A stretch of 64,000 nt of DNA from Candidatus Woesearchaeota archaeon (lineage in GTDB: Archaea; Nanobdellota; Nanobdellia; SCGC-AAA011-G17; GW2011-AR18): the NCBI GenBank assembly GCA_018302765.1, contig JAGVZG010000001.1, positions 68,482-132,481 on the forward strand, written 5' to 3'. Position 1 is the first letter of the stretch. Every line of letters starts with the position of its first letter. A program made the position numbers and the translations under genes. Below, piece after piece: positions 4,723-36,061 of this stretch. Below the pieces are notes generated by a model. It saw only the letters and a list, made by a program, of their open reading frames with translations, had not been told where the DNA came from and made no database searches.

Positions 4723-6333
4723 ATGACTAGTTTTACTGCTGATGAAATTGCTTTATTGGCAAGATATGTTTCGGACCCTAATGAAAATATATTTGTTGTT
4801 AGTGGATTAACCGGTATAATTGGTGCAGTTTATGCGCGTTATAGTAGATCACCAACAGGTTTTAGAGAGACATTTCTTAGAGAATTCTTGAATAATGGAA
4901 ATTTGGATCCGAGAAGAGCAGATGAATTAATAGAGAGGGTCTTGGTTGCATATGGTGATGATTCTGTTGGCGAACTTGAGGGGACTCATCTGTCTATTGA
5001 GAACATATCTATTTTAGCCACAAAAGAAATTGAAGACAGGAGAATAGGTGGCTCTCCAATAGAACAATCAACCAGGTACATAATATATAATACTAAAGAT
5101 GATAATGGGAGATTTAGGTTTTTTAGAGATCCTAAAATTATGGCTTCTGAATTTGGACAAAGATGTGAAGACACACTTAATTTTGTTTTTCAAACTTATT
5201 CTGAATTAGTCTCTTTATTGCAAGATTATTTTAAAAAATTAAAACCTATTGAAGATACACAGTATGCTATTAGAGCTGGAGATGAAAGGGAGTATATGCT
5301 TAGTGATTTATCAGAAGAAAGAGACTTAAGAGCTTTTAGATTGACTTATAAGAATGATATTAAGACAAAGGCATGTGATGTAACCAGAGTTTTATTACCT
5401 GCTGCAACATTAACCAATATTGGTATTTTTGGCAATGGAAGATTTTTTCAGGGTTTGCTTTCACATTTATATACGTTAGATGCTTTTGAAATGAATGATA
5501 TTGCTGCTAGGGCACATACTGCTTTGAATACAGTGATGCCAAGATATGTCAAGAGAGCTAGCCGTAGTTATTATCTGCATTCTGTTGATGAGAATATGAA
5601 AGATTTATCTAATAGTATTTTTAGCAGTGTAACTCCAGATAATGATGAGGATGTTGTTTTGCTTGATAATCCAAAGAATGATAAGGAGTATATGGATTTT
5701 TTATTGGCTGTAATGTTGTATAAATATTCATTATGTCCTATGAGGCAAATTAGAAGTGTTATTAGTAAATTACCAGATGAAAGAAAAATTGAGATTTTTA
5801 ATACTTATATTTGTAATAGAGAAAATAGAAGAAACAGGCCAGGCAGGGCTTTAGAATTTGGATATCCTTTGACTTTTGATTTAACTTTAGACTATGGAGA
5901 CTATAGGGATTTAGAAAGGCATAGAATATTGACACAAGAAAGACAAATGTTAACTCCTGATATTGATTTTGTAATATCTGATGAAATAGATGCAGTTGGT
6001 TTTAGAGGCAGAGTAAATGAAGCAGTTGAAAGGTCTGCTGAGCTTTATAATTTACTAAAGAAAGATTTTCCTTATGAAGCACAGTATGCTGTTTTACTTG
6101 GATTTAAAATTAGATGGATGGTGGGAATGAATCCTAGAGAAGCTATGCATATGCTGGAACTAAGAACTGGAAAGCAAGGCCATCCAAGATATAGGGCTAT
6201 GTGTCAGTCAATGCATAACTTGATTTCTCAGAGATGGCCTTTAATTGGTGAATCCATGAGTTTTGTTGACCATAGATCTTATTATTGGAGCAGAGCAGAG
6301 TCTGAAGCTGGTCAAAGAAGGAGAGAAAAATAA
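4723..6333 (+). CDS. thyX: long-form flavin-dependent thymidylate synthase-like protein (ThyX-like)
   Basis: Contains an RHR motif (DLERHRILTQE) and an ARYSRS segment reminiscent of ThyX. At 536 aa it is about twice the length of canonical ThyX. Confidence 0.5.
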   Translation: MTSFTADEIALLARYVSDPNENIFVVSGLTGIIGAVYARYSRSPTGFRETFLREFLNNGNLDPRRADELIERVLVAYGDDSVGELEGTHLSIENISILATKEIEDRRIGGSPIEQSTRYIIYNTKDDNGRFRFFRDPKIMASEFGQRCEDTLNFVFQTYSELVSLLQDYFKKLKPIEDTQYAIRAGDEREYMLSDLSEERDLRAFRLTYKNDIKTKACDVTRVLLPAATLTNIGIFGNGRFFQGLLSHLYTLDAFEMNDIAARAHTALNTVMPRYVKRASRSYYLHSVDENMKDLSNSIFSSVTPDNDEDVVLLDNPKNDKEYMDFLLAVMLYKYSLCPMRQIRSVISKLPDERKIEIFNTYICNRENRRNRPGRALEFGYPLTFDLTLDYGDYRDLERHRILTQERQMLTPDIDFVISDEIDAVGFRGRVNEAVERSAELYNLLKKDFPYEAQYAVLLGFKIRWMVGMNPREAMHMLELRTGKQGHPRYRAMCQSMHNLISQRWPLIGESMSFVDHRSYYWSRAESEAGQRRREK

Positions 6334-6407
6334 TTATTTAGTTAATATACATTCTGCATAATCGAAATTTATTTTTATTAGTATTATTGTTTATATTTTG
6401 ATGCTAT

Positions 6408-7349
6408 TTGATTAATCGTGAATATTTTAATTATGATATGTTAAGACTATTCTGGTATTTTGTATGTGAGAGACAGAGCGTCTGGTATAAGCGTTTTTGT
6501 TGTAAATTAGATCCGCCATGGACCAAAGATATAATTTTACAAAAAGAGAGATTTACTAATGTTTATAGAGAATTAGATCCTGGAACGATTTACGCTATTA
6601 ATAATATACTTGAGGTTGATGCTCCAAAACAAGATAAAATTTTCAATACCATGTTCTATCGTTTGGTTGGTAGTTCCAATACTCACAAAGAAGTTGGATT
6701 TCAGAAACTAAGTTATTTTAATCCAGAGCATTTAGAGGCAAAGATGAAATATATTAGGGACGTTGAAAAGAAGTCTGTTTTTACTGCAGCTTATATGGTT
6801 AGTGGTTATTCCAAAATGGGTTCAAAAGATAAGGTAGAAAATGTTGTCAGGTTATTTACCAAACTGAGAAATTCTTTTGACTCTATTTATTCAGATATTC
6901 AAGGTTGCAAGAATTCTGAAGAGGTTTATAATGTTATTAGAGGTTTGTATGGTTTTGGCAATTTTTTATCATATCAGATATTGGTTGACTTGCTTTATCC
7001 TTTGAGAATATGTAAAGGCAAGAGTCTTTTACCTTATTCACATGATGACTGGGCAAGTGCAGGGCCTGGAGCAAAAATAGGAATCGAATTATTATTGAAA
7101 AAAGGCTTAAAGTTTAGCAATCTTGATGTAATGATGTGGTTAAGAAAAAATCAGTGTGAAGAATTTTTGAGGTTTGGCTTAAATTTTAATTATTTAACTG
7201 ATGACAAAGGTGATAAAATTGAGCTGTCTTTAGCAAACATACAGAACTGCCTTTGCGAATTTCATAAATACATTAAGATTAGGGATGGAACTGGAAGAGG
7301 AAGAAGAAAGTTTACTAGTGGTTTTTTTAATGTAAACAAAATATCCTAA
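6408..7349 (+). CDS. hypothetical protein (Trp/Tyr-rich N-terminus, no P-loop)
   Basis: 313-aa ORF. Its stop overlaps the convergent HIT gene. It is adjacent to the ThyX-like gene. Confidence 0.45.
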   Translation: MINREYFNYDMLRLFWYFVCERQSVWYKRFCCKLDPPWTKDIILQKERFTNVYRELDPGTIYAINNILEVDAPKQDKIFNTMFYRLVGSSNTHKEVGFQKLSYFNPEHLEAKMKYIRDVEKKSVFTAAYMVSGYSKMGSKDKVENVVRLFTKLRNSFDSIYSDIQGCKNSEEVYNVIRGLYGFGNFLSYQILVDLLYPLRICKGKSLLPYSHDDWASAGPGAKIGIELLLKKGLKFSNLDVMMWLRKNQCEEFLRFGLNFNYLTDDKGDKIELSLANIQNCLCEFHKYIKIRDGTGRGRRKFTSGFFNVNKIS

Positions 7350-14060: not shown

Positions 14061-15521
14061 TTATTTAACATTTCCTATCGGAATTAATTTTGTTACAGGT
14101 TTAGAAATTCCTGCTTTAGCTAATGCATCAATTACGTCATTTATTTCTTTGTATGCAGATCCTGCTTCTTCAGCTAATCCAGACATTGATCCAGACTTAA
14201 CATAAATCCCTCTTTGTTCCATTTCTTTTTGTAGTTGATCTCCTCTAAATTCTTTCTTGGCTTGATGCCTTGACATTGTTCTGCCAGAACCATGTGCTGT
14301 ACTTGAGAAAGTTTCATTGTCTGCTTTTTCTGTACCGACTAATAAATAACTTCCTGTTTCCATTGAGCCGCCAATTATTACTGGTGATCCTATATCTCTA
14401 TATAATTTTGAAACCTCTGAATTTCCTGGACCCTGACACAAAGTTGCGCCTTTTCTATGAACAACTAATTTTTTCTTTTTTCCATCAATTTTAAATTCTT
14501 GTAATCTTGCTAAATTATGAGCTACATCATAGACACAGTGCATCTCCATATCTTCTGCTTTAGTTTTGAAAATTTTTTCAAAACCTTCTCTTATTCTATG
14601 TAAAATTACTTGTCTATTTGCGAAAGCCATATTTGCTGCACAAGCCATTGCTTTGTAATAATCTTGTCCTTCCTTGCTTGAAAATGGAGCACATGATAAT
14701 TCTTTATCTAAAATTTTTATTTTTTCTCTTTGCATTACATTTTCAAAAATTTTTAAGTAGTCTGTAGCAACCTGATGACCAAAACCTCTAGAGCCACAGT
14801 GGAACATTATTACAATCTGATCTGGAAAAATTCCAAATTTCCTTGCTATATCTTTATCAATAATATTTTCTGGTTTTACATGCTGAATTTCTAGATAATG
14901 ATTACCTGAGCCAAGTGTTCCTAGTTGATCAATTCCTCTTTGTCTTGCTTTTTGTGAAACTTTACTTGAGTCAGCCCAGTCAATTCTTCCATTACTTTCT
15001 ATTCTTTCTAAGTCTTTTTGCCAACCATAATTATTTTCAACACACCATTTAACACCTTCTTCCATTACATTATTGAATTGCTGATTATTTATTTTTACAA
15101 AACCTTTGCAGCCTACACCAGATGGTACTGTTTGGAAGAAAGTATTCACTAGTTCTTTTAATTTAGGCTGAACGTCTTTAATTGTGAGATTTGTTGTAAC
15201 AAGCCTCATGCCACAATTTATATCAAAACCAATTCCTCCTGGAGAGATTACTCCTGTCTCAGCATCCATTGCAGCAACTCCACCAATTGGAAAACCATAC
15301 CCCCAATGCCCATCAGGCATGCATAGTGCAGCTTTTTGTATTCCAGGTAGGCATGCTACATTGGTTACTTGGTCAAACACTCCGGGATCCATTGTTTCTA
15401 ATAATTTTTTAGTTGCGTAAATCCTTGCAGGTACGTTCATACCTTGCTTGAAACTAGTTGGGATTTCCCAAACTGCTTCTTCTATCTGTTTTGTATCTTT
15501 TGGTATATTTGACATAATCAA
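14061..15521 (-). CDS. rtcB: RNA-splicing ligase RtcB
   Basis: 486 aa. Metal-binding motifs typical of RtcB are present, including DGHWGYGFPIGGV, HCGSRGFGH and NHYLE. Confidence 0.9.
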   Translation of the reverse strand: MIMSNIPKDTKQIEEAVWEIPTSFKQGMNVPARIYATKKLLETMDPGVFDQVTNVACLPGIQKAALCMPDGHWGYGFPIGGVAAMDAETGVISPGGIGFDINCGMRLVTTNLTIKDVQPKLKELVNTFFQTVPSGVGCKGFVKINNQQFNNVMEEGVKWCVENNYGWQKDLERIESNGRIDWADSSKVSQKARQRGIDQLGTLGSGNHYLEIQHVKPENIIDKDIARKFGIFPDQIVIMFHCGSRGFGHQVATDYLKIFENVMQREKIKILDKELSCAPFSSKEGQDYYKAMACAANMAFANRQVILHRIREGFEKIFKTKAEDMEMHCVYDVAHNLARLQEFKIDGKKKKLVVHRKGATLCQGPGNSEVSKLYRDIGSPVIIGGSMETGSYLLVGTEKADNETFSSTAHGSGRTMSRHQAKKEFRGDQLQKEMEQRGIYVKSGSMSGLAEEAGSAYKEINDVIDALAKAGISKPVTKLIPIGNVK

Positions 15522-15724: not shown

Positions 15725-17041
15725 ATGGCAGACGTAGTTGTTCCGGATGGATCTAGCAGAGATGACGATACAGATAAAATTATAACTATAGATATGAGTG
15801 CAATAGCAGATGATACTACGCCTTTACTTCAACAAGTTCATAATGAAAAAAGTGAACCAATGGCTATACCTAATTCTTTAAATTTAAATCTTATTCATGA
15901 TACTAAAATTCATGAGCAAATTGAAGATTTGCGTGTTAGAGACTGTCCTAGTTTAGAAAAGGTTTTGATAGGTTTGGGATATGATGATTCACACAATATT
16001 GTTAATGTATCTGTAGAAGACGCTGATCCTATTTATTATAAGGTTGGAACTGGTCTTGTATTTCAAGTAGACTTAGAAATTAATATTGGTACGACTACAA
16101 GTGGTTTTGTTGGAATTGATTATAGGACATGTGAAATTCCGAATTTGCATGTTTTGGCAAGAAATTCTTCTAATTTAAATCGTAATAATAAATTAGCGAG
16201 CTTGTATAAGAAATGGGTAGATTTTAGTTATAAACATAATTTTAGTAAAATTGTAGGAATGATGGACAGCGATGATGTCGTTAGAATATTCAGAATTTTT
16301 GATTATGATAATATTGAAAATGTTGAAATTCATAAAGTTGAATTAGTTAAAAATGAATATTATTTAGAGGCTTCTTGTTTTTATAGATCTTCTGTTGGGA
16401 GTATAAAATCAAGTTTATTTTGTGGAAAAATTCCAGCGAGTAAAATTTTATTAGACGTACGTTATTTGGAAGCAAATGTGATGAATTTGAAGAGAAAATC
16501 TTCAGCAGGAAAAATTATATCTATTGGCGCTTTTGGACTTGCTAGTTTGCTTGGCTTAGCTTATTTAGGATTGAGTACTCAGGATGTTTCTGGCTATAGT
16601 CCTGATTTATTGACTTCAAGTGGCGGTGATTTAGTAAGTCCTGCAGATATGACGCTTCATGAAGATCTTAAGTCTGAATATTTAGGTGACGCTAGCAATG
16701 GCGTTGCGGTTGATTTAGGAAGTAGTTCTAGTCATCCACCAGTTAGAATTTCTTTTATGGCACGCAGACCTAAAACTAAGGGCAGTTTATTTGTTAAGGT
16801 TGGTGGTGCTTCAGATGGAAGACATGTATTTAAGTATACTGCTGGAAAAGTAGGTTCTTATAGTACAAAAACAGGTAAGCCATCTTTTTATTCAGATGCA
16901 TTTAATGATTGGGTTGGCACAACTGCTGACAAATATGAAAAAGTTGATTCAGACGGTGTTTATAATAATAAAAATTGCAACAAACCACAGAAAGGTTTAA
17001 TGAAAGATATGCCTGCTTATGTTTGTGCGCAGCCAAAGTAA
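15725..17041 (+). CDS. membrane protein P1: acidic N-terminal domain, central TM helix, C-terminal FKY/CKPQ/AYVC domain (paralog family)
   Basis: TM segment ISIGAFGLASLLGLAYLGL. The C-terminus (VRISFMARRPKTKGSLFVKVGG...VFKY...VYNNKNCNKPQKGLMKDMPAYVCAQPK) is near-identical in key motifs to the 32512 and 33830 proteins. Confidence 0.55.
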   Translation: MADVVVPDGSSRDDDTDKIITIDMSAIADDTTPLLQQVHNEKSEPMAIPNSLNLNLIHDTKIHEQIEDLRVRDCPSLEKVLIGLGYDDSHNIVNVSVEDADPIYYKVGTGLVFQVDLEINIGTTTSGFVGIDYRTCEIPNLHVLARNSSNLNRNNKLASLYKKWVDFSYKHNFSKIVGMMDSDDVVRIFRIFDYDNIENVEIHKVELVKNEYYLEASCFYRSSVGSIKSSLFCGKIPASKILLDVRYLEANVMNLKRKSSAGKIISIGAFGLASLLGLAYLGLSTQDVSGYSPDLLTSSGGDLVSPADMTLHEDLKSEYLGDASNGVAVDLGSSSSHPPVRISFMARRPKTKGSLFVKVGGASDGRHVFKYTAGKVGSYSTKTGKPSFYSDAFNDWVGTTADKYEKVDSDGVYNNKNCNKPQKGLMKDMPAYVCAQPK

Positions 17042-17102
17042 GATTCTTAGCAATAGAAATGTTTATTTATCTTCACTATTTTAAAGTAGTGCAAATGATA
17101 AA

Positions 17103-18176
17103 ATGGCTGCAATAATTCCAGATGTTTTACCTTTATTGATTGGACAAGATTTATTAGTTAGATATAGTGACGCTGCTACATTGCCTCCTTTTTATGAGGG
17201 GTATGTTGCTAAACTTGTCGATTCTTCGTTAGGAGGTATAAGTAGGATAGCTGATTTAGACACTTTGACTGCAGATCCATGTGATTTAGACGGTATGTTT
17301 TTTAATAGTACTAATGACACTGCTGCCAGGATAGAATACTTTAGAATTTATAGTGGTCGTATTGATAGATTTGATGCAAGTTCTGGAAAATTGTTTTACA
17401 GAGCTGACGCTAGTCTAGGAGTAATTGGAAGTATTGGTGACAGCAGCAGTATATTTGAAGTTGGTAGAAGAGAATATTTATTTTGCTATTACAATGCTAG
17501 AAATGGTAAATGTTCTGTATTAAACGTTAATAATGATTTATGTAATGTGAGTTCTTATCTTCTTCCTTTTCTAAAAACATTTGTTCCTATTACGCATGTT
17601 GAATGCAGCAGTTCTCCTGTAGGAGTTATATATAATAAAGTATTTTTGGATAAGTTAGACATTCCTGAAGATTTTGTTAAAGGTATTCAGGGCGTTGTGC
17701 TTAAAGAAATAAAAAGAGAAAAGTCAAGTAATAGTTATATTTTATCAGGTACAGTTTATTATGCTAACCCAAATGCCAGAGGATTTTCGTTTGTTAAAGG
17801 TGCTTTTAGTAAATTTGATAATTTATTTTTAGAACATGGAACTAATTTTTTTGTAGATGGTGATTATTTGAAATCATGTGGCGTTGATTTAGGCCAAGAT
17901 AATGACTATTCTTATGGTAGTCTTGTTATCAGTAGAGGCACTAATCTTGATTGGAAATTGATTGGATTGGCTGGAGGTATTGCTTTAGGAGTTTTATCTG
18001 CAATTTGGATTGCTTATAATATTGTTCCTGGTTATTCTGCTGTAATGGCTCCAAGTGTTGATGCTGGCGCTGACTTAATTAAATCCTCTGCAGATAAAGA
18101 CAATAGTGGACCAAAATATAAGAAAAAAATTTCTAAACCTAAAAAACATAAAGCCAAGAAAAAATCATCTAAATAA
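17103..18176 (+). CDS. tail-anchored Cys-containing protein P2 with Lys-rich C-terminus
   Basis: 357 aa with several N-x-S/T sequons, a TM helix near the C-terminus (LIGLAGGIALGVLSAIWIAY) and the tail KKKISKPKKHKAKKKSSK. Its stop abuts the convergent archease stop. Confidence 0.5.
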   Translation: MAAIIPDVLPLLIGQDLLVRYSDAATLPPFYEGYVAKLVDSSLGGISRIADLDTLTADPCDLDGMFFNSTNDTAARIEYFRIYSGRIDRFDASSGKLFYRADASLGVIGSIGDSSSIFEVGRREYLFCYYNARNGKCSVLNVNNDLCNVSSYLLPFLKTFVPITHVECSSSPVGVIYNKVFLDKLDIPEDFVKGIQGVVLKEIKREKSSNSYILSGTVYYANPNARGFSFVKGAFSKFDNLFLEHGTNFFVDGDYLKSCGVDLGQDNDYSYGSLVISRGTNLDWKLIGLAGGIALGVLSAIWIAYNIVPGYSAVMAPSVDAGADLIKSSADKDNSGPKYKKKISKPKKHKAKKKSSK

Positions 18177-18611
18177 TTAAATGTCAACAAGCACTTTTGC
18201 TTTCCATTTGTCTTCTTCTTTTATTATTTCAAATTCATGCATTGTAATTGCCTTTGCATCGTCATGGAGATCCTGAGTTTCTCTGTTGATAAAATCACCT
18301 TCACATCTTGCAAATATTTCATATACTTTATTTTTGTGTGATATAACAACATCGAACTTGTTAAACAGCAAACCTTCTGTGTCTTTAACAAATATAAGTT
18401 CTGAAAGAAAATCATAAAGAAGATTTTCTATGGAATTTGTTTTTAGTGATATTTCATAATGCTCTTTAGTCTCCAATGTTTTTATGTCTACCATGATTTC
18501 TTCTAGAGCCAGAGCTGAATTTTCAAATAGGCTTTCTAATGTTTTTCCATAGGCTTCAAAAATTATATCTGCTGTGTGTGGTAGAAATTTATACTTCATC
18601 TTCTTTAACAT
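18177..18611 (-). CDS. archease (RtcB activator)
   Basis: 144 aa. The N-terminal FLPHTADIIFEAYG motif (HTAD) and a C-terminal ...KVLVDI match the archease family. Confidence 0.8.
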   Translation of the reverse strand: MLKKMKYKFLPHTADIIFEAYGKTLESLFENSALALEEIMVDIKTLETKEHYEISLKTNSIENLLYDFLSELIFVKDTEGLLFNKFDVVISHKNKVYEIFARCEGDFINRETQDLHDDAKAITMHEFEIIKEEDKWKAKVLVDI

Positions 18612-19053
18612 TCCTTCTTTCTACAACAATATTTATTTGCGTTGTCACACCTTCTTTATCTTCCCTTATTAAAATATTTCTGTCAGTTATTTGTTTTACA
18701 ATGTCTTTTATTGTGTAATCTGACTTCATTTTATCTCCAATCAAAACAGCATTTAGCATATATTCATTTGAAATTTGTTCTATTGTGATCTGCTTTATTG
18801 CTGATAATACAAATAACTCGTTATTTGCTAGTTCAAATAATCTTTTTAGAAATTGGAAAAGCAGATTTTTAAGATCCCTTGCTCTTATTATCAGTGTTTT
18901 TGTAATAGCTAGATCTATTTCTTCTGTGTTTATTACAATTTCAAATAATGACTTTGCTATTTTTGAGAACGATGCTTCTAAACTTGATGCTTTTTCTGAT
19001 ATTGTTATTTCTTCGACTTTGTGCTTTGACATAAGCTTTTTAATGCAATGCAC
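18589..19053 (-). CDS. archease-like paralog lacking the HTAD motif
   Basis: 154 aa. ASSLEASFSKIAKSLFEIV and ARDLKNLLFQFLKRLFELANNELFV align with archease core helices, but the metal-binding H-T-A-D is replaced by T-I-S-E. It overlaps the archease start by 23 nt. Confidence 0.45.
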   Translation of the reverse strand: MHCIKKLMSKHKVEEITISEKASSLEASFSKIAKSLFEIVINTEEIDLAITKTLIIRARDLKNLLFQFLKRLFELANNELFVLSAIKQITIEQISNEYMLNAVLIGDKMKSDYTIKDIVKQITDRNILIREDKEGVTTQINIVVERRNVKEDEV

Positions 19054-19144
19054 TTTATATAATTAACCTTGATAATGTTATTACTTTTAAGTAGCTAAAT
19101 ATAGGAAGATTTTTAAATAACTGAAGTTTTATTTTCATGTTAAT

Positions 19145-21649
19145 ATGGGAAAGGTTTTGAACTACGTAGGTAGAGGCATAAGAAATTTTGTTAGAAGGCA
19201 CAAGAAAGGGATTTCGCTAGCTGGAGCTTTAGTATTTGGCACTTCTGCTGCTTTAACTTGTGGCATTTATAAGTATATAACTACTCCTCCAAAGGATTTT
19301 GGAAGAGTAGGGCAATACTGGCATACTTACAAAGAACGTGAAAAATTAAAAAGTATAGAAAATAATGGTGCTTTAGAAAATAAGTTGAATATAAATAGAA
19401 AAGATAATGGTTCTTCAGGCGGGGCTTATCCTGATCCTAATATAATAGGCATTTGGCCGTTAACTCCGGATAACGGAATTAAGGTAGTTACTTCCAGTGG
19501 CAGAGAAATTGTTACTAGATACGCCACTTGGAACTATGCTTCTTTGGATGAAGTACCTAAAACTGTTATAAATTCTGTTTTAAGTGTAGAAGATGCAGAC
19601 TATCTTGAGCATAAAGGAGTAAACTGGAATTTAAGGAAGATTAAGGGTTTATTTTCTCCTATTCTTGGTGGAAGACGTGTTGGTGGAAGTGGCATAACAG
19701 AACAAGTATCTAAAATGATGTTTACTGATTTTGGTAAGATAAAGCCTAGGAGATCAGCAATGCAGAAACTTCGTGAGTTGCGTTATGCTTATTATTTAGA
19801 TAGTGTGCTTGGCAAGGAACAAGTATTAGAATTTTATTTGAATACAACGCCATTAGGAGACAGTTGTTATGGCGTAAAGTGCGCTGCTATGAATTACTTT
19901 GGTAAGGAACTGAGTAATTTAACTTTTCCTGAGAGTTTGTTTTTAGCAGCAATTATTAAAAATCCAGGAGCAAATCCAAAGAATAGTGGTTTTGAATTTC
20001 AAAAACGTAGATATGACATGCTCTGTGAGTCTTTGCACGATCTTGAAAGGATTACTGAAGATCAATATAAGGAGTGCAAATCTGCAGATGTGATTAAAAT
20101 GAAGCCTGGCTTAAAAAGAAGAAGATCTCCAATAAGTGATCCTAGTGTTTTTAGTGCTTTGGCTTATGAATTAGAAAATTATGATTTTGATTTAGTTGAC
20201 AATGTTGTTCATCAGCCAAATCCAGGTTTTGGGTTTACAGTTTATACTACAATAAATGATGAGATGCATGACGCTTTAGGCCAAGCATTTGTGGATGGAC
20301 TTAAACCAAATCAAGAACAGGTTCAACTTGGCGCTGGCGCTGTGCTGAATAGCGAGGCTCAAATAGTTGCTATTTTAGGCAGGACAGACTACAGTACGCT
20401 AAGCGGAGCTTGGAGTTTTAGGAATCTTGCTGTAGCTGGGAGACGTGCTGCTGCTTCTTCAATAAAGCCTTTTGTTTATGGTTCTTGCTATGACCAAGAG
20501 AATTCAAATATTACATGCAAACCAGGCAATGTTATTTCTGATTCTAAAAAAGGATTGAGAAATCCTCCTCATAATTTTGATGGAAAGTATGAAAGAAGAA
20601 TGTCTTTAGCAGAAGCTTTAACTTCATCGAATAATGTAATAGCTTATAAAGTGTGTCGTAGAATTGGACTTAGAAATGTACTTCCAGTTATAGAAGCTGT
20701 TGGATTTGATGTTGCTGAATATGAAACAGTATTTAGGGACTGCAGAAATACTGCTTTAGGCTCAGGGCGTGTAACTCCTTTAGAACTTGCTGCTGCTTAT
20801 CGTGTTTTTGTAAAAGACGATGATGGTAATTTTTCTGCAGAATATAGAAAGCCAACAATTATTGATAGGGTTGATTTATGGTCTTTTAATTACAAAGTAA
20901 ATCTATCTGCAACAAAAGTTTTTCGTAGTGCTAACACAGTTGAATCTGTTAGAATTAGCTTAGACAGGCTTGGAAATAAAATTGTTGGCAGTAAATATGA
21001 AGCAGATATAGGTTTTAAGACTGGCACTCCAAACCCCACTACACATTGGTATTTAGGTGGAGTTCTTGACCTTGATAGTGTTTCTTATTCTATAGGTTTT
21101 CTGGCTGTGGCTAAACCTAAAGTTGTACCTTCAAAAAAAAATCCTAAGGTTTTAGTAAAAGTTTATCCTAATAAGTTGTATGCTAGTGGCGTTCTTGGTC
21201 CTGTGGTAAAAAGTTTTGTTGACGGAGTTGCTCCTAGAAAAGAAATGAAGCCTATTGATCTATATGTTCCTGCTGTTGCTAGCTTGGACAGCGTATGCAG
21301 TAATTATAATTTAGCAAGCGTTGAGCTAACTTTGCCTAGTGCTGATAATCACGATCTTGAGACACTGGGAGATATTTTAAGTGCTTGCTCTTCTTATTTT
21401 TCTGCTAATAATGAAAATGAAAAGTATGGCTTATTTTCTTACGCTGCAGGCCGTGTCTGGGAGACTTTGTACAGTAATGAAGCAACGTCTTCTCCAGGCA
21501 GCAAAACTGCTTTGCTTTACTATAGCAGTGCAATTAATTCTTATAAAACAGCTGTTCAGGAAGACAGTTTTAGTAGTTTAGCTGAAGAAAGAATTAGAGA
21601 TTTAAAGATTAAAAGAGAACAGGAAGCTAATAGAATTCATGCAGATTAA
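19145..21649 (+). CDS. class A penicillin-binding protein (bifunctional GT51 peptidoglycan glycosyltransferase / D,D-transpeptidase), N-terminal TM anchor
   Basis: GT51 motifs EDADYLEHKG, GGSGITEQ, QKLRE and VLEFYLNTTPLG...YGVKCAAMNYFGK...LTFPESLFLAAIIKNP. Transpeptidase motifs SSIKP (SxxK), SSN (SxN) and KTGT appear with canonical spacing. A TM segment lies near the N-terminus. Confidence 0.8.
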   Translation: MGKVLNYVGRGIRNFVRRHKKGISLAGALVFGTSAALTCGIYKYITTPPKDFGRVGQYWHTYKEREKLKSIENNGALENKLNINRKDNGSSGGAYPDPNIIGIWPLTPDNGIKVVTSSGREIVTRYATWNYASLDEVPKTVINSVLSVEDADYLEHKGVNWNLRKIKGLFSPILGGRRVGGSGITEQVSKMMFTDFGKIKPRRSAMQKLRELRYAYYLDSVLGKEQVLEFYLNTTPLGDSCYGVKCAAMNYFGKELSNLTFPESLFLAAIIKNPGANPKNSGFEFQKRRYDMLCESLHDLERITEDQYKECKSADVIKMKPGLKRRRSPISDPSVFSALAYELENYDFDLVDNVVHQPNPGFGFTVYTTINDEMHDALGQAFVDGLKPNQEQVQLGAGAVLNSEAQIVAILGRTDYSTLSGAWSFRNLAVAGRRAAASSIKPFVYGSCYDQENSNITCKPGNVISDSKKGLRNPPHNFDGKYERRMSLAEALTSSNNVIAYKVCRRIGLRNVLPVIEAVGFDVAEYETVFRDCRNTALGSGRVTPLELAAAYRVFVKDDDGNFSAEYRKPTIIDRVDLWSFNYKVNLSATKVFRSANTVESVRISLDRLGNKIVGSKYEADIGFKTGTPNPTTHWYLGGVLDLDSVSYSIGFLAVAKPKVVPSKKNPKVLVKVYPNKLYASGVLGPVVKSFVDGVAPRKEMKPIDLYVPAVASLDSVCSNYNLASVELTLPSADNHDLETLGDILSACSSYFSANNENEKYGLFSYAAGRVWETLYSNEATSSPGSKTALLYYSSAINSYKTAVQEDSFSSLAEERIRDLKIKREQEANRIHAD

Positions 21650-21745
21650 TTTTATATATATGTACTATTATTACTATTGAATATAGCAAATCATTTAAGG
21701 TATGAAAAAATAACCAGACTTTACACACAAAAATTTTTCGTAAGC

Positions 21746-21754
21746 TTTATAAAT
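21746..21754 (+). promoter_or_regulatory. putative archaeal TATA box (TTTATAAAT) for the EF-1alpha operon
   Basis: AT-rich TATA-like element ~49 bp upstream of the ATG. A GAGGGGGA Shine-Dalgarno-like element lies 9-16 nt upstream of the start. Confidence 0.35.
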
Positions 21755-21802
21755 TACTTAAAAATCCAAGTTTTATTGAAATTTTGAGGGGGATATTCAA
21801 AT

Positions 21803-23083
21803 ATGGCTAAGGCAAAACCACATTTAAACGTTGTATTTGTAGGTCACGTAGACCACGGAAAGAGCACTACAGTTGGGAGATTAATGTATGACGCAGGTGT
21901 TATTCCTGAGCAGGATATGAGAAAACTTAAGGAAATGGCTCAGCAGTTAGGAAAGGTTGGTTTTGAATTTGCTTTTGTTATGGATAATCTTAAAGAAGAA
22001 AGAGAGAGAGGAGTTACTATTGATTTAAGCCATAAAAAATTTGACACTCCTAAATTCGAATGTACAATTATAGATGCTCCAGGGCACAGAGATTTCATTA
22101 AAAATATGATTACAGGCGCTAGCCAAGCAGACGTTGCTTTCTTAGTTGTGGCTGCACCTGACGGAGTAATGGCACAAACTAAAGAACATGTTTTCTTGTT
22201 AAAGACTTTTGGTGTAAATCAGATTGCTATTGTTGTTAACAAGATGGACGTAGTAAAATATGACCAAGCTAGATTTAATAAAGTAAAGGAAGATGTAAGT
22301 GCTTTGTTAAAGTCTGTTGGATACAAGCCAGATCAAGTTAAGTTTATTCCAGCTGCTTCTTTCTTAGGAGATAACGTAGTGAAGAAGAGTACAAATATGT
22401 CTTGGTATACTGGATCAACTATCTTAGAACAAATAGATAATTTCAGTCCTCCTGAAAAACCAACAAACTTGCCGCTAAGATTGCCTTTGCAAGATGTTTA
22501 TAATATTACAGGCATTGGCGTTGTTCCAGTTGGTAGAGTTGAAACTGGAGTAATGAAAGTTGGCGATAAAGTGATTATAGTTCCTGGAAGGGAAGGAACT
22601 GGTATAAAAGGAGAAGTTAAAACTATTGAGATGCATCACGAGCAAATACAAGAGGCTGTTCCAGGTGATAATATAGGATTTTCAGTCAGAGGAGTTAATA
22701 AAAAAGATATTGCTAGAGGAGATGTTGTAGGACATGAAAATAATTCACCAATAGTTGTAAGTGAGTTTACAGCACAGATAGTTGTTTTAAATCATCCTAC
22801 AGTATTGACAGTTGGATACACTCCTGTATTTCATATACACACTGCACAAGTTGCTTGCCAATTTGTTAAGTTGTTAGCAAAACTTGATCCTGCAACAGGA
22901 CAAGTAATGCAAGAAAATCCTGACATGCTAAAGAACGGAGATGCAGCTAGGGTTGTTATAAAACCTACAAAACCTTTAGTAATTGAGAAACAGAAAGATA
23001 TACCTCAAATGAGTAGGTTTGCAGTTAGAGATGCAGGTCAAACTGTTGCTGCAGGCATGTGTATTGATTATGTGAAAAAGTAA
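21803..23083 (+). CDS. tuf: translation elongation factor 1-alpha (aEF-1A)
   Basis: 426 aa. [14 protein letters not shown] and the FKYAWV-like segment ([22 protein letters not shown]) are diagnostic of the archaeal/eukaryotic EF-1alpha form. Confidence 0.95.
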
Positions 23084-23091
23084 ATTTAACT

Positions 23092-23110
23092 TCTTTTTTT
23101 AATTTTTAAT
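23092..23110 (+). terminator. T-rich tract downstream of EF-1alpha (archaeal oligo-T terminator-like)
   Basis: cttctttttttaatttttaa lies immediately after the stop. Confidence 0.25.
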
Positions 23111-23185
23111 ATAAAATCAAGAAAGTATAAATTCTGTAAAACTGAACTAAGAAAGCTTTAAAAATAGTCGTCTTTTCTAAATGTC

Positions 23186-23497
23186 ATGCAAAAAGCAAGA
23201 ATAAAATTGGCAAGCGCTGAAATTGACTTACTCAATGAAGTAGTTAATTCTATAGTCGATATAGCTAAAAAAACTAATACTGTTATTAGAGGACCAATTC
23301 CTTTGCCAACTAAGAAATTAAAAATAACCACTAGAAAGTGCCCTTGCGGCGACGGCAGGGCTAGTTTTGATAGGTTTGAAATGAGAGTTCATAAAAGACT
23401 AATTGATTTAGGCGTTGATGAGAGAGCATTAAGATTAGTTATGAGAGTTCCTTTACCAAAAGGGGTGAACATAGAAATAAACCTTTTGGAGAAGTAA
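23186..23497 (+). CDS. rps10: 30S ribosomal protein S10
   Basis: 103 aa. The conserved tuf-rps10 order of archaea is present, and [11 protein letters not shown] matches the S10 loop. Confidence 0.85.
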
Positions 23498-23956
23498 ATG
23501 ACTAGAGAATTAGAATTAATGTTGGGCGTTGACCTTGCTGGTGAAAATGCACCAAATAGATTAGCTATTTTTCTAAATGATTTTGTTAAAGTATTACATT
23601 CTCCCAATTTAAGAGTTTTTCAATTTCATCCTTTGCCTTCTAAGAAAGGAGATAACTATAGAAGATTAATATCCTTAGGTTCTCATGAAGTTCCTCTCGA
23701 TGTTTTTAGTCAAAGTGACTGGGGTCCAAAGGTTTCTTTGTATGATGCTGTAAGAAAGGATAGATTTTTTTCTTTTGAGTTAAATTATGGTAGGATTGTT
23801 CCTGTTGAAATTCTTCCAGACAATTTACTTCCAGGTAACTATCTTTTGATGGAATTGCATAATGGAAATAGTCATAAATCTTATCATATTCTATATTTAG
23901 ATGAAGGATTACAAGAGTTTGCTTTTTCTGGCGGACCAAAGTATAAGAAACAGTAA
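23498..23956 (+). CDS. hypothetical protein
   Basis: 152-aa ORF that starts directly at the S10 stop. Confidence 0.4.
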   Translation: MTRELELMLGVDLAGENAPNRLAIFLNDFVKVLHSPNLRVFQFHPLPSKKGDNYRRLISLGSHEVPLDVFSQSDWGPKVSLYDAVRKDRFFSFELNYGRIVPVEILPDNLLPGNYLLMELHNGNSHKSYHILYLDEGLQEFAFSGGPKYKKQ

Positions 23957-27003: not shown

Positions 27004-27894
27004 ATGGTTTTGATAAGAAAAAAATCAATAGATAGCAAGGAGTATTATTATTTGGAACATTCATTTAGAGAAGCAGGTTCTGTCAAAAAAAAAGAACTTT
27101 ACTTAGGAACTGAGATTCCCAAAAATATTGAAGAAATCAAGATAAAATTTACTGAAGAAATATATAAAGAAAGATGGAGTAAAACATTAGAAGAGATAAA
27201 AAAAGAGTATAATAAAGAAAATAGATCAATACCAGAATCGTTAACTGAAAAAGAAATAGAATCTTTTATGATTAAATTTACTTATAATACTCAAAGGATA
27301 GAAGGTTCAAGGTTAACATTAAGAGAAACTGCAAATTTATTAGAAAAAGGAATAACGCCCAAAGAAAAACCTGTTAGAGATGTTAGAGAAGCAGAAGCAC
27401 ATAAAAAAGTATTCTATGAAGTGTTAAAATTCAAAAAAGACTTGTCATTAGATTTAATTCTTCATTGGCATAGAATGTTGTTTTTAGAAACAAAAAAAGA
27501 TATGGCTGGAATACTAAGAAAACACCAGGTTGCAATATCTGGGAGTAAGTTTATACCTTCCTCTCCTGTAGAAGTTTATTTATTATTAAGGGAATTCTTT
27601 AAATGGTATGAAAAAAATAAAAGTAAGATAAATCCTGTAGAATTAGCAGCATGCGTTCATTTAAAATTTGTTACAATACACCCATTTGGAGATGGGAATG
27701 GGAGAATATCAAGACTGATGATGAATTTTGTTCTCAAAAAAAATAAATATCCAATGTTAAATATAAAATATGAAGGAAGAAATAGTTATTATAATGCGCT
27801 TGAAAGATCGCAAGTAAAGAAAAATGAAGGAATATTTATACAATGGTTTATAAAAACTTATATAAAAGAAAATAAAAGATATTTGAAGAAATAA
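27004..27894 (+). CDS. fic: Fic-family protein (AMPylase-type) with putative inhibitory helix
   Basis: Fic motif HPFGDGNGRISR (HPFx[DE]GNGR). An upstream TQRIEG matches the [ST]xxxE[GN] auto-inhibition motif. Confidence 0.8.
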   Translation: MVLIRKKSIDSKEYYYLEHSFREAGSVKKKELYLGTEIPKNIEEIKIKFTEEIYKERWSKTLEEIKKEYNKENRSIPESLTEKEIESFMIKFTYNTQRIEGSRLTLRETANLLEKGITPKEKPVRDVREAEAHKKVFYEVLKFKKDLSLDLILHWHRMLFLETKKDMAGILRKHQVAISGSKFIPSSPVEVYLLLREFFKWYEKNKSKINPVELAACVHLKFVTIHPFGDGNGRISRLMMNFVLKKNKYPMLNIKYEGRNSYYNALERSQVKKNEGIFIQWFIKTYIKENKRYLKK

Positions 27895-32511: not shown

Positions 32512-33774
32512 ATGTCTATTAAAAATTGGACAATAGGTGGCCTTGGTGCACTTGTTTTAGGACTTGCTGCTTCTTCTTTAACTTGTAAGCCTTGCAATGA
32601 TTTAGCAAGAAAAGTTAGTGGTAAAGAACTTCCTTTATTTGGTCGTGTTAATGGAAATACGCAAAACAAAAATCCTGCTCCTTTGCCTAAGCCTCATGTT
32701 GCAGATGACGAACCTGCTGCTGACGAAGGTAGTAGTGATGATAGTTCTGAAAAAACTACAGAATCTGCAGAAGTAGAATCAAAAAGTTCTGGTTCATCAG
32801 ACGCAGATTCTTCTTCTAAAAAACCTAGTTTTGTTAAAGTTGGCAATGTTGGAAATAAAGACGTATTCAAATATGACTTAGGTAAAGTTAGGGATGGAGA
32901 GGGTTCATTTTTGTACGCTGTTAGATTTAATAAATGGGACGACAGTTCTGAAGGAGACACCTATAAAAAAGTTGGTCAAAATGATGTTTACAATAATAAA
33001 AATTGTAAGCCACAGAAAAATTTTATGAAAGGTATGCCTGCTTATGTTTGTGTTCTTCCTAATAATGGGGAAAGTGGAGACACTCCTGGAGATGCTGGTG
33101 ATCGTGCTCCAAATAATGTTGAAGTGAGGTCAGATTCTGGTGCAGTTGCAACAACAGATCCTACATCTACTCGAACTTTGCACGTAGCAATAGAACGTCC
33201 AAGTTCTCCAGATCTTGGTTCAGATTCTGGCGTAGGCAGTTCTGGAACAATTGAATTAGTTGTTAATCCTTATGCTAATGCTACTGAGACAGCAACTCCT
33301 GCTGAGAGTGGCGACTCTGAAGATGATAGTTCTGGCGATACTTACGATGAAGATGCTGCTGGCACTTCTGGTCGTCGTGATTATACTGACCCTTTTGGCG
33401 TTGTTTTGTCTGGCGACCCAGTTGCAGCACAATATGGCACTGCAATAATAAGTGGTTTTAATGAAGCTTATCAAGATAAATATAGGACTAAGAACAGCGG
33501 TAAATGCTTAAGTGTAAATATTGGTTTAGAATACGCTGTTGGAGCAAAAGGCGAACTTGTTAGTATAAGGGGATATTTTTGTGGGGACTTAGAATCATGC
33601 GCTGGAAGAGGAAAACTTTATTTGGATCAACCTCATGATTCTAGTTTAGATGAAAATTTTACTTTTGGAAGAGAGCTGATTAAGGTAATAAGAGTAGAGA
33701 ATTCTAAAAGGCCACTTGTTTCTGTCAAAAGAGGAAACTACGTAGGTTCTATAATTGAATTTGGTTGTGAATGA
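32512..33774 (+). CDS. secreted protein P3: signal/TM N-terminus, acidic Ser/Asp/Glu-rich low-complexity linkers, FKY/CKPQ/AYVC domain (paralog family)
   Basis: N-terminal hydrophobic segment GGLGALVLGLAASSL. The KKPSFVKVGNVG...VFKY...VYNNKNCKPQKNFMKGMPAYVCVLP domain matches the C-terminus of the 15725 protein. Confidence 0.55.
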   Translation: MSIKNWTIGGLGALVLGLAASSLTCKPCNDLARKVSGKELPLFGRVNGNTQNKNPAPLPKPHVADDEPAADEGSSDDSSEKTTESAEVESKSSGSSDADSSSKKPSFVKVGNVGNKDVFKYDLGKVRDGEGSFLYAVRFNKWDDSSEGDTYKKVGQNDVYNNKNCKPQKNFMKGMPAYVCVLPNNGESGDTPGDAGDRAPNNVEVRSDSGAVATTDPTSTRTLHVAIERPSSPDLGSDSGVGSSGTIELVVNPYANATETATPAESGDSEDDSSGDTYDEDAAGTSGRRDYTDPFGVVLSGDPVAAQYGTAIISGFNEAYQDKYRTKNSGKCLSVNIGLEYAVGAKGELVSIRGYFCGDLESCAGRGKLYLDQPHDSSLDENFTFGRELIKVIRVENSKRPLVSVKRGNYVGSIIEFGCE

Positions 33775-33829: not shown

Positions 33830-36061
33830 ATGTCTTTAAGATCACTACTATATGCAGCGCTTTTTTTATTTATTGGCAGTGCTGAAACTAACGTTGATGC
33901 TGCTAGAAAACCTAGGTCAGAGAGAACAGCGTTTTCTAAAATAAAAGAAAAGGGTAATGTACATGTTTTTAAGTACAGAGTATCTAGTGGTGAAAAAGAC
34001 AGTGATATTGCTTTGAAATTTGGGATTTGGGACAGAGGCCAAGGCAGTTTGTATGAAACAGTTACTTCTGCAAGCGTTACTGGCGACCCTTCTTGTAAAC
34101 CTCAACTTCTTAAAAAAGAAAACATTGCTTATGTTTGCGCTAATAGAAAACTACGTGTAGTGCCTAATGATTTCAAAGGGCCTTCTATTGAATTTATAGA
34201 TTTGTTTGATACTCCTTATTGGGGTTCTTTGTTGAAGGTTACAAAGAGTTTTGGTCCTGATGGATTTCCAGTTCACACTGTTGATTTAAATATAACTGCA
34301 AGAGAAAAAATAAATGTTAATTCTAGGAGAAGTGCTTATGCTTATAGAGGTTCACATGATTTGGAAAGTATAACTATTTTTGCTTTTGATAGAGATGCTG
34401 AGAGAGATCTTACTTTATGTCCAGAAAAAGTCTATGAGTTTAAGTATGACGAGCTAGTTACTTTGCCTAATTGCATTACTGATGGTTCTTATGGTATTTT
34501 GGCAGCTTTAGAACATTTTGCTAAGTTTGAGTATGGCGTTTTAGATAAATATACAGAAACTGTTCCGCCAGGATTAGCAGGTTTTAAGGCTGGAAGATTA
34601 GTTAAACCATCTGCAGAACTTGCACCAGCTCCGATAATATTTATAACTCCTCCACCTTCTCCAACACCTTTAGTTCCAGTTCCAGTTTCAACAATACCAG
34701 CAGCTCCTAGTGGTTCAAGTGCTTCATCTTCTGCTACTACAACAGTTCATTCTCCACCTATTAGTTTCAAAGCTAGAAGACCAGGACCTGGTTCAGCTGT
34801 ACCTTCAGTTGGTTCAGGAATTTCAACAATACCAGCAGCTCCTAGTGGTTCAAGTGCTTCATCTTCTGCTACTACAACAGTTCCTTCTCCACCTATTAGT
34901 TTCAAAGCTAGAAGACCAGGACCTGGTTCAGCTGTACCTTCAGTTCCAGCTTCGGTTTCTGTTTTTAGCGGTTGGACTGATACCGCTTTAGGTTCAAGCA
35001 CTGAATCTTGTAGTGCCTGCGCATCAACAAACTCAGTACAATTTGTAGGAGGAGTTAGAGTTCGTGGCTTGTTAAGTAACGTTGAATTTAATAGCAACAC
35101 AGGTTTAGAATCTTCTTATGGTTTTATTGGTGGAGATTTACGTTTAGTTTTGGGTGGGGGTGTTGGGAATAATTATTTAGCAGTTTCTGCAGCTGCTGGA
35201 TTAAGAAAAGTTGGCGTAGATGGATTATTAAGTAAAAGGCTTTTGGACTTTGGTGACAATAGTAATACAACTCATGTAGAAGTTGGACCGTCTGGAAGAT
35301 TACATTTAGCTAAAGGAAATAAATTGGAAGTTGATGCTGTACTTAATCCTGCTTTTTTATATAGTAGAGAGCGTGTAAATAATTTTGGCGGAAATAGTTT
35401 CTTAGAGGAAGGTAAAGGGCTTAGGATAAATGGCAGTGTAGCTTTACCTCGTCTCTTATTTAATGGAGAAAAATTTGCTTGGGGTTTATACGGTGATTTT
35501 GATTTAGAGGCATTGAGACTAAAGCAAACTAATCTGAATAGTGGACAGGAAACTTTGTTTGGCTGGAGAACTAGAGGATCTTATGGCGGAGGCAGTTCTT
35601 TTAGTTTTGATGCTTTAGGAACAGACGTTAATATTGGTGTTGGATTTAGGACGCACCATAATTATAATTTAGCTTTAAGAAGTAATTTATCTCCTAATGA
35701 TTTAAAGTGGTTACAATACAGACAACAGAGAGGTTTTATACTTGATTTAAGTGATCTTACTGTAGGTGATTCTAGAGGGTATACTTTAGACCCAGCTTTA
35801 ACTATTGAAAATGATAGGTTTTATTTAAGACTTGAAGGACAAGTATCTATTTATGGAAATGTAAGGAGAGGGGGATTTTGCTTAAATACTGGTGGCAAAA
35901 CCAGAGGTGGTTTATACATTGGTAGTGGGTTTTGTTACAGTGATATTACTCAAGAATCTGAAGCAGGCAGTGCCAGAAGCAGGGGAGGATCAGTTAATAT
36001 TACTTTAGGAAGTCCCAGTATTAAATTAAATCCAAGAATTGATCAGGCAGACATAAGATAA
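33830..36061 (+). CDS. secreted protein P4: signal peptide, divergent FKY/CKPQ/AYVC domain, Pro/Ser-rich region with tandem ISFKARRP-containing repeat, Gly/aromatic-rich beta-strand-like C-terminal domain
   Basis: Signal peptide LLYAALFLFIGSA. Motifs VFKY...SCKPQ...IAYVCA are present. SPPISFKARRPGPGSAVPSV appears twice. The C-terminal ~350 aa shows alternating hydrophobic/polar residues rich in G, N, R, Y and F. Confidence 0.55.
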   Translation: MSLRSLLYAALFLFIGSAETNVDAARKPRSERTAFSKIKEKGNVHVFKYRVSSGEKDSDIALKFGIWDRGQGSLYETVTSASVTGDPSCKPQLLKKENIAYVCANRKLRVVPNDFKGPSIEFIDLFDTPYWGSLLKVTKSFGPDGFPVHTVDLNITAREKINVNSRRSAYAYRGSHDLESITIFAFDRDAERDLTLCPEKVYEFKYDELVTLPNCITDGSYGILAALEHFAKFEYGVLDKYTETVPPGLAGFKAGRLVKPSAELAPAPIIFITPPPSPTPLVPVPVSTIPAAPSGSSASSSATTTVHSPPISFKARRPGPGSAVPSVGSGISTIPAAPSGSSASSSATTTVPSPPISFKARRPGPGSAVPSVPASVSVFSGWTDTALGSSTESCSACASTNSVQFVGGVRVRGLLSNVEFNSNTGLESSYGFIGGDLRLVLGGGVGNNYLAVSAAAGLRKVGVDGLLSKRLLDFGDNSNTTHVEVGPSGRLHLAKGNKLEVDAVLNPAFLYSRERVNNFGGNSFLEEGKGLRINGSVALPRLLFNGEKFAWGLYGDFDLEALRLKQTNLNSGQETLFGWRTRGSYGGGSSFSFDALGTDVNIGVGFRTHHNYNLALRSNLSPNDLKWLQYRQQRGFILDLSDLTVGDSRGYTLDPALTIENDRFYLRLEGQVSIYGNVRRGGFCLNTGGKTRGGLYIGSGFCYSDITQESEAGSARSRGGSVNITLGSPSIKLNPRIDQADIR
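34688..34945 (+). repeat. near-perfect tandem duplication: two 123-bp units separated by 12 bp (period 135 bp) inside the P4 coding sequence
   Basis: Units 34688-34810 and 34823-34945 differ at about one base (cattct vs ccttct). Each encodes STIPAAPSGSSASSSATTTV[H/P]SPPISFKARRPGPGSAVPSV. Confidence 0.85.

Follow-up and report, generated by a model that had tools for sequence, protein, structure and literature searches.

Class A penicillin-binding proteins (PBPs) join a GT51 glycosyltransferase to an acyl-serine transpeptidase, and little or no evidence for orthologs of either enzyme in archaea has been reported (PMC10117817). The pseudomurein of Methanobacteriales and Methanopyrales is associated with homologs of Mur ligases and of MraY, without GT51 or PBP-type transpeptidase (PMC10117817). 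Giant GH23 lytic murein transglycosylases (fam00969) have been described in Woesearchaeota and Pacearchaeota (Castelle et al. 2021, PMC8204110; Vigneron et al. 2022, PMC9723730), and such lytic proteins have been read as signs that small-genome members of these groups attach to or prey on bacteria. In addition, some archaea have been shown to produce peptidoglycan hydrolases with which bacteria are killed (PMC12352652). Here we describe a class A PBP (aPBP) gene of 834 codons, at positions 19145–21649 of the forward strand in a 64,000-nucleotide stretch of DNA from a Candidatus Woesearchaeota archaeon (assembly GCA_018302765.1, contig JAGVZG010000001.1, positions 68,482 to 132,481; hereafter the window). 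Its product, P0001, may be an anciently acquired, exported enzyme that acts on the peptidoglycan or lipid II of a bacterial partner, a reading that, on the sequence evidence, we hold to be evenly balanced between right and wrong.

A complete class A PBP in an archaeal neighbourhood

P0001 contains both catalytic domains of a class A PBP. Pfam places Transgly (PF00912) at residues 128–292 (E 2e-38, 131.9 bits against a cut-off of 27) and Transpeptidase (PF00905) at residues 404–632 (E 1e-10, 41.7 bits against a cut-off of 22.1), and a whole-genome profile scan scores the GT51 domain at 136 bits. The translation reads GT51 motifs EDADYLEHKG (residues 149–158), GGSGITEQ (180–187), QKLRE (207–211) and EFYLN (229–233), together with a fifth, motif-5-like KRRYDML. 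The transpeptidase motifs SSIKP (438–442), SSN/SNN (494–497) and KTGT (625–628) follow with canonical spacing. A first-pass annotation made from the letters of the window had quoted this frame and its motifs, called the product a complete class A PBP and proposed a search with the two Pfam profiles; the motifs are present as described, both profiles score above their cut-offs, and Pfam, profiles of solved structures and the predicted fold agree on the assignment.

The N terminus of P0001 carries a putative membrane anchor. Specifically, the top 19-residue Kyte-Doolittle window starts at residue 23 (residues 23–41, mean 1.73) after the basic segment RRHKK, indicating a single N-terminal signal-anchor, as had been claimed. 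By the positive-inside rule, the catalytic domains are predicted to lie outside the cell.

The predicted structure resembles those of bacterial aPBPs. A profile search of the PDB with P0001 and its orthologs returned PBP1a, PBP2 and PBP1b chains over both domains (E 1e-55 to 1e-47). In the structure prediction that the first-pass annotation had suggested as a check, an AlphaFold2 model built on a 100-sequence alignment reached a predicted local distance difference test (pLDDT) of 89.9 and a predicted template-modelling score of 0.82, superseding an earlier run on six archaeal sequences (pLDDT 51). The closest Foldseek matches of the model are solved aPBPs: the best are PBP2 of S. aureus (2OLV, 2OLU, 3DWK), PBP1b of E. 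coli and PBP1a of A. baumannii (E 1e-25 to 1e-20), 3VMA and 3UDF are among the top hits with 2OLV and 2OLU, the probability is 1.00 for 2OLV, 3DWK, 5HLB, 3UDF and 5U2G, and the glycosyltransferase domain can be aligned to that of Aquifex PBP1a (2OQO).

P0001 scores below the NCBIfam thresholds of PBP_1a_fam (TIGR02074; 225.5 versus 508.75 bits, over residues 131–558 only), PBP1C (161 versus 494 bits) and PBP1B (116 versus 718 bits), and judged by these scores it belongs to a divergent lineage that the curated subfamilies of bacterial aPBPs do not cover. Neither Pfam nor NCBIfam has a match in its N-terminal 130 or its C-terminal 200 residues. The C-terminal domain is modelled as helices with pLDDT of about 80–97, its structural look-alikes are TPR-type repeats (TM-score about 0.6, a lead only), and its residues C718 and C748 are invariant in six orthologs. 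The ortholog alignment also reveals a conserved juxtamembrane segment before GT51, marked by GQYW, PD and WP.T..N.I. Upstream of the start codon, in DNA of 70% A+T, the TATA-box-like element TTTTTAAATA would imply a leaderless or short-leader mRNA, at which it weakly hints.

The gene resides in an archaeal genome, among neighbours that the first-pass annotation had correctly called archaeal: Pfam identifies aEF-1alpha 153 bp downstream, then S10, and upstream RtcB and two archeases (Table 1). The archease genes are overlapping paralogs, one with a strong and one with a weak Pfam match, and the pair, 2.6 kb from RtcB, is kept across the family. The PBP gene lies 88 kb inside contig C27 of 132,669 bp, in a genome of 1.02 Mb and 28 contigs that is rated 100% complete and 1.15% contaminated. 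Among the 590 long open reading frames (ORFs) of this genome, the gene falls at the 67th percentile for GC content at third codon positions (0.217) and at the 49th for synonymous-codon distance; its total GC is high (96th percentile) because of codon positions 1 and 2, not because of synonymous choice.

Independent assemblies support the same arrangement. A 7-kb stretch around the gene is present in 20 public runs of 11 studies (groundwater, soil or sediment). Mismatch-free contigs cross the archease/PBP junction (X6, 18727–20881; X9, 17000–19709; X12, 18450–19312) and the PBP/EF-1alpha junction (X12, 20497–21855; X8, 20908–21988). These bridging contigs come from four runs of four further studies, and depth is even at about 4–6x. 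The contig-integrity check called for by the first-pass annotation therefore excludes a mis-joined bacterial segment: the position in the contig interior, the bridged junctions, the native codon usage and synteny in five other genera all speak against a chimera. In run X12, summed contig depth reaches up to 320x over EF-1alpha and S10 (21914–22147 and 23084–23551); these spikes probably stem from contigs of other organisms that match conserved genes and are not a feature of the locus.

Relatives, age and constraint of the gene

Full-length homologs with 29–38% identity occur in five species of five genera of the same GTDB family (G001, G005, G006, G017 and G021), all recorded publicly as Candidatus Woesearchaeota archaeon, including GW2011_AR18. 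In all five, the PBP gene diverges from the same archease pair, and in one of the five genera EF-1alpha follows downstream as in the window. Profile searches detected GT51 in 9 of the 240 genomes of the order, all from this same family, whereas the 28 other families (213 genomes) yielded no match; phylum-wide, 20 of 401 high-quality genomes have it, closed ones included. The 27 genomes of the family comprise six carriers of the archease-adjacent gene (type-1), three carriers of a second form (type-2) and 18 in which GT51 was not found. In the congener G002, S10–EF-1alpha stands beside the archease pair across a spacer of ~140 bp (L094, G002:C50, about 4823–7084), so the PBP gene is absent at exactly that site, and the two genomes present a clean presence/absence polymorphism.

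An exhaustive profile search of 1.84 billion representatives separated the relatives of P0001 from other aPBPs. Specifically, the hits P0122–P0140 form a discrete set of about 20 clusters (at 50% identity) scoring 1164 to 285 bits, above a generic aPBP plateau of at most 261 bits, about a quarter of the clade's scores. In a single-sequence search of a 5.8-billion-cluster index, frequent GT51 words hid the true relatives, so that P0001 and generic PBP1A of bacteria were all that it returned. Nineteen members form a core clade with SH-aLRT support of 99 in IQ-TREE and supports of 93–99 in FastTree, and no presumed bacterial sequence appears in the trees as a specific sister of the DPANN clade. 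The members that can be placed are archaeal: P0124 and P0274 are named Woesearchaeota, P0190 is named Nanoarchaeota/DPANN and its gene adjoins L7Ae-S28e-L24e-aEF-2-aEF-1alpha, and the gene of P0138 adjoins a PUA/DUF1947 gene. P0137 lies on a 698-kb contig of ambiguous context. On the trees and scores, the P0001 group is an orphan clade of divergent class A PBPs in archaea.

This distribution bears on the direction of transfer. In a census listing big bacterial phyla only, class A PBP/GT51 occurs in 29,007 of 36,145 genera, and archease is a neighbour in fewer than 3 of 300 cases, a figure that concerns those phyla and says nothing on Woesearchaeota. The near-universal presence of GT51 in bacteria and its sporadic presence in DPANN archaea argue for transfer from bacteria to archaea. 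By phylogeny the transfer is old, the trees single out no bacterial donor, and a single acquisition of all divergent DPANN aPBP groups may not be distinguishable from long-branch attraction.

Other aPBP-like proteins of these archaea differ in their active sites. Genus g13 of the same family has the larger type-2 proteins (1059–1350 aa), encoded beside aEF-2 and not beside archease; they have a clear GT51 domain in which the motif-3 Glu is replaced by Gln in three of three, intact SxxK, SxN and KTG motifs, and they group with a 1468-aa protein of another family (L079). In the sister-lineage protein P0190 (L047/L048:6001–8541) the canonical GT51 motifs are intact, but the serine of SxxK and the lysine of KTG have both gone; its gene is tail-to-tail with a cis-prenyltransferase gene (PF01255), near the ribosomal and elongation-factor genes named above and S10. 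A 284-aa GT51 fragment of another DPANN metagenome-assembled genome (MAG), G454:C37 (L071; also G454:C26), sits on a 12-kb contig with three Mur ligases and looks like bacterial contamination, which indicates that not every 'archaeal' GT51 match is real.

Within the clade, both active sites are conserved. S438, K441, S495, N497 and K625-T626-G627 of the transpeptidase are present in 21 of 21 members (78–79 of 79 other aPBPs); of the GT51 residues, E149 and K208 are each found in 20 of 20, and position 211 is Glu in 18 and Asp in two. The clade proteins are only 25–40% identical overall, and all six orthologs keep a full-length intact frame with invariant catalytic residues. Compared with the same-genus ortholog, the PBP is 40% identical, as against 74–77% for the archeases, 86% for RtcB and 95% for EF-1alpha. 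By domain, GT51 is best kept (36–43%) and the C-terminal domain least (13–29%). Near-identical variants of the PBP differ by one residue, and the orthologs are saturated. Intact active sites, fast divergence and absence from the congener therefore suggest that the gene is functional but accessory, and it appears to evolve like a surface-interaction protein.

Three GT51 positions set the clade apart from other aPBPs. Position 183 is Gly in 16 of 20 clade members and Thr in 78 of 79 others (T183G), position 186 is Glu in 16 of 20 and Gln in 74 of 79 (Q186E), and position 207, the motif-3 Arg of RKxxE, is Gln, Arg, Glu or His in the clade and Arg in 78 of 79 others (R207Q in P0001). These positions probably line the donor-substrate site of the aPBP–moenomycin structures.

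Missing precursor pathway and possible roles

The host genome encodes no route to the usual substrate of the enzyme. Profile searches to which control genomes respond found no MurA/EPSP (PF00275), MurB (PF02873), Mur ligase (Mur_ligase_M, PF08245), Ddl (PF07478), MurG or SEDS protein in this 100% complete genome, and no Mur ligase in any of the nine carriers of the family (the window genome and eight others). The sole GT4 protein was rejected as MraY (46 bits against a cut-off of 192) and as the archaeal pseudomurein MraY (44 against 450), and the 'MurJ' match is a generic Wzx/Polysacc_synt flippase, a better fit than MurJ (27 versus 236 bits). A self-made murein layer is thus not supported.

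Wall-cleaving domains, in contrast to this pathway, are present in the genome: two SLT and two M23. The largest of these proteins, of 2257 aa (Table 1), is probably of the Woese-/Pacearchaeota 'fam00969' type; the others are an SLT protein of 380 aa and another protein with M23. Of the 27 family genomes, 21 have SLT, and SLT proteins of more than 2000 aa are likewise encoded in G001, G003, G008, G013 and G018.

From these results we infer a substrate, a partner and a physiological role for P0001. An ancestor of the Woesearchaeota family, or of a wider DPANN group, would have acquired an aPBP gene from bacteria long ago. The gene would then have stayed at one site beside the archease pair and EF-1alpha/S10, with repeated losses, quick divergence and the gain of a clade-specific helical C-terminal domain. 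Its predicted product is a catalytically competent, membrane-anchored, outward-facing GT51 enzyme and DD-transpeptidase, as sequence and model suggest. Since the organism has no route to UDP-MurNAc-pentapeptide or lipid II, such an enzyme must use peptidoglycan material made by bacteria, and its likeliest site of action would be where the archaeon touches a bacterial partner or prey. At this contact, the lytic transglycosylases and M23 endopeptidases of the genome may open the sacculus, after which the aPBP may re-polymerise, cross-link or trim stem peptides, so as to stabilise or remodel the attachment site. Of the alternatives named by the first-pass annotation, the best fit is a horizontally acquired gene that may serve interaction with a bacterial partner.

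Several observations weigh against this proposal. No RNA run is listed among the 20 runs that carry the stretch. SLT is about equally common in PBP carriers and non-carriers of the family, without specific co-occurrence. The GT51 site works at the membrane of its own anchor, which leaves access to the lipid II of another cell unexplained and calls for membrane contact, fusion or apposition, or for scavenged lipid II. T183G, Q186E and the loss of Arg207 may mean that the substrate is not canonical lipid II. Finally, the case for missing pathway genes depends on searching a MAG with profiles.

The same location of the GT51 site would suit an endogenous envelope polymer, whether a murein-like layer, an unrelated glycan made from a lipid-linked sugar that GT4 and Wzx-type proteins supply, or own-surface peptidoglycan built from scavenged lipid II. 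The altered GT51 motifs 2 and 3 could then reflect another lipid-linked substrate, the genome encodes a MOP flippase as well as a GT4 polyprenyl-phosphate sugar transferase, and the gene of the sister protein P0190 adjoins one for a cis-prenyltransferase. We nevertheless regard such a polymer as unlikely: a route to a D-Ala-D-Ala stem (Mur ligases, Ddl, MurA/B, MurG) is missing, yet the transpeptidase site is strictly conserved, and Mur ligases are missing from all nine family carriers. Moreover, a species of the same genus lacks the gene at the same site, and it was not found in 18 of 27 family genomes, which is unexpected for a core wall synthase; it also evolves far faster than the housekeeping neighbours. 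The murein-like layer in particular, which the first-pass annotation had offered, is disfavoured by the congener without the gene and by the missing MurA, MurB, Mur ligases, Ddl, MurG, MraY proper and SEDS. A kindred idea is that these DPANN archaea carry out extracellular peptidoglycan synthesis with building blocks from elsewhere, either polymerising and cross-linking lipid II from a bacterial host into a host-fed chimeric murein layer on their own surface, or welding their own cells into the host sacculus where they attach; this we consider doubtful, if somewhat easier to entertain.

A role that leaves synthesis aside, as a peptidoglycan- or muropeptide-binding adhesin or sensor, or through the use of a single domain, finds precedent in other aPBP-like proteins of DPANN archaea. 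The type-2 proteins of g13 lost the motif-3 Glu to Gln and P0190 lost its SxxK serine, so single-domain use does occur in the group; a DD-carboxypeptidase or endopeptidase, for example, could trim the stem peptides of a partner, harvesting D-Ala or loosening the wall. Fast divergence and an added C-terminal domain that resembles a protein-interaction module would agree with this role. However, both catalytic sets are kept together across clade proteins that are only 25–40% identical, which argues for selection on both chemistries and makes a non-synthetic role improbable. Decay towards loss would account for the patchy spread, the absence from the congener and the fast divergence, but the intact full-length frame in six orthologs, the catalytic residues kept across 21 clusters and the confident fold leave a decaying relic very improbable. 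To misjoined or misbinned bacterial DNA, or a very recent functionless transfer, we attach next to no credence: aPBPs are near-universal in bacteria, the sample is a mixed community and G454 shows what a bacterial-looking contig in a DPANN MAG can be, but here the gene is flanked by archease and aEF-1alpha deep inside its contig, the junctions are bridged in four independent runs, codon usage is native, synteny extends to five other genera, and the nearest non-DPANN relatives reach only about a quarter of the clade's bits.

Action on a bacterial partner's wall material, the explanation that we favour, would have consequences beyond this locus. Constraint on both active sites extends over a whole archaeal clade, whose genomes encode wall-cleaving enzymes without the pathway for the substrate. 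The long-standing idea that bacteria, not archaea, are what some Woese-/Pacearchaeota live on thereby becomes testable, and P0001 can serve as a marker for finding the partner. If extracellular synthesis were true, Archaea would have their first murein synthase activity, and cross-domain symbiosis between DPANN archaea and bacteria would gain a molecular handle. As a caution, those who bin metagenomes or check them for contamination should not take GT51 for an exclusively bacterial marker. Relatives already appear in databases under the label 'penicillin-binding protein [Candidatus Woesearchaeota archaeon]'; a full-text literature search on DPANN found only lytic enzymes discussed and no synthase-type enzyme, and the statements it found were that archaea lack GT51 and PBP-type enzymes.

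Table 1. Features of the PBP gene, its neighbourhood and related loci (window coordinates unless a locus is named)
Feature	Position	Strand	Evidence or remark
Class A PBP gene (P0001), 834 aa	19145..21649	+	ORF, Pfam, PDB profiles, AlphaFold2/Foldseek
Putative N-terminal signal-anchor, residues ~22–45, after RRHKK	19208..19279	+	Hydropathy; helix in both AlphaFold2 models
GT51 domain, residues ~128–320; catalytic E149 (nt 19589–19591) and E211	19526..20104	+	Pfam, alignment
Acyl-serine transpeptidase domain, residues ~401–700	20345..21244	+	Pfam, clade conservation
Transpeptidase active-site residues S438, K441, S495, N497, K625-T626-G627	S438: nt 20456–20458		
All-helical TPR-like C-terminal domain, clade-specific, without known family	21245..21646	+	AlphaFold2
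Archaeal TATA-box-like element TTTTTAAATA	19110..19119	+	Read from sequence; 26–35 nt upstream of ATG
RtcB tRNA-splicing ligase, archease partner	14061..15521	-	Pfam PF01139, 565 bits
Two tandem archease genes, divergent from PBP gene	18177–18611 and 18589–19053	-	Pfam PF01951
aEF-1alpha	21803–23083	+	Downstream of PBP gene; Pfam GTP_EFTU and GTP-eEF1A_C
Ribosomal protein S10	23186–23497	+	Pfam Ribosomal_S10
2257-aa protein, C-terminal SLT and Peptidase_M23	G000 C26:27251–34024 (= L043:3255–10025)	-	
Type-2 aPBP-like genes of g13	L040:2726–6385, L041:2096–5272, L042:2892–6941	-	

Elsewhere in the window, the first-pass annotation had grouped three ORFs (15725–17041, 32512–33774 and 33830–36061) as a secreted paralog family with a possible functional connection to the PBP. 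By BLAST, those at 15725 and 32512 share 84 residues at 51% identity and the one at 33830 is unlike both, so the family does not hold as drawn; none of the three has a Pfam match, and the functional link is unsupported. The ORFs at 32512 and 33830 have signal-peptide-like N termini. Further genes of the window include an aspartyl-tRNA synthetase with a GAD insertion domain, a bacterial-type architecture in an archaeal genome (57376–59139, minus strand), a 536-aa protein with two Thy1 (ThyX) matches C-terminally and no family for its N-terminal 380 residues (4723–6333, plus strand), and a Fic/DOC-domain protein 3.5 kb downstream of S10 (27004–27894, plus strand).

Comparison with known systems

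P0001 has the same order of transmembrane anchor, GT51, linker and transpeptidase as the bacterial aPBPs (E. coli PBP1a and PBP1b, S. aureus PBP2, A. baumannii and Aquifex PBP1a), and shares with them the GT51 motifs, both catalytic glutamates and SxxK/SxN/KTG. However, it is only 20–27% identical to any bacterial aPBP, its motif 2 reads GGSGITEQ where theirs reads GGSTITQQ, it lacks the motif-3 Arg and a UB2H/OB (PF17092) insert, and its host is an archaeon without a lipid II pathway. In turn, the clade-specific helical C-terminal domain and the conserved juxtamembrane segment are extras that distinguish P0001 from the bacterial proteins. Among the wall polymers of archaea, pseudomurein alone is related to murein; the window genome has neither Mur ligases nor an archaeal MraY.

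The closest parallels in concept are enzymes that act on the walls of other cells. Bdellovibrio predators secrete PBP-type DD-endopeptidases and transpeptidases that remodel the walls of their prey, a concept akin to that proposed for P0001; these are class C-type DD-endopeptidases or L,D-transpeptidases of a bacterium that makes its own wall, not bifunctional GT51 enzymes. The bacteria-killing hydrolases of PMC12352652 are likewise archaeal, of bacterial origin and directed at a polymer that their producer lacks; they have shown antibacterial activity, whereas P0001 is a predicted synthase/transpeptidase. The fam00969 proteins, one of which the window genome probably encodes, are likewise extracellular and directed at bacterial walls in the same archaeal groups, but they are degradative (GH23, M23), whereas P0001 is of the synthase type, combining GT51 with a DD-transpeptidase.

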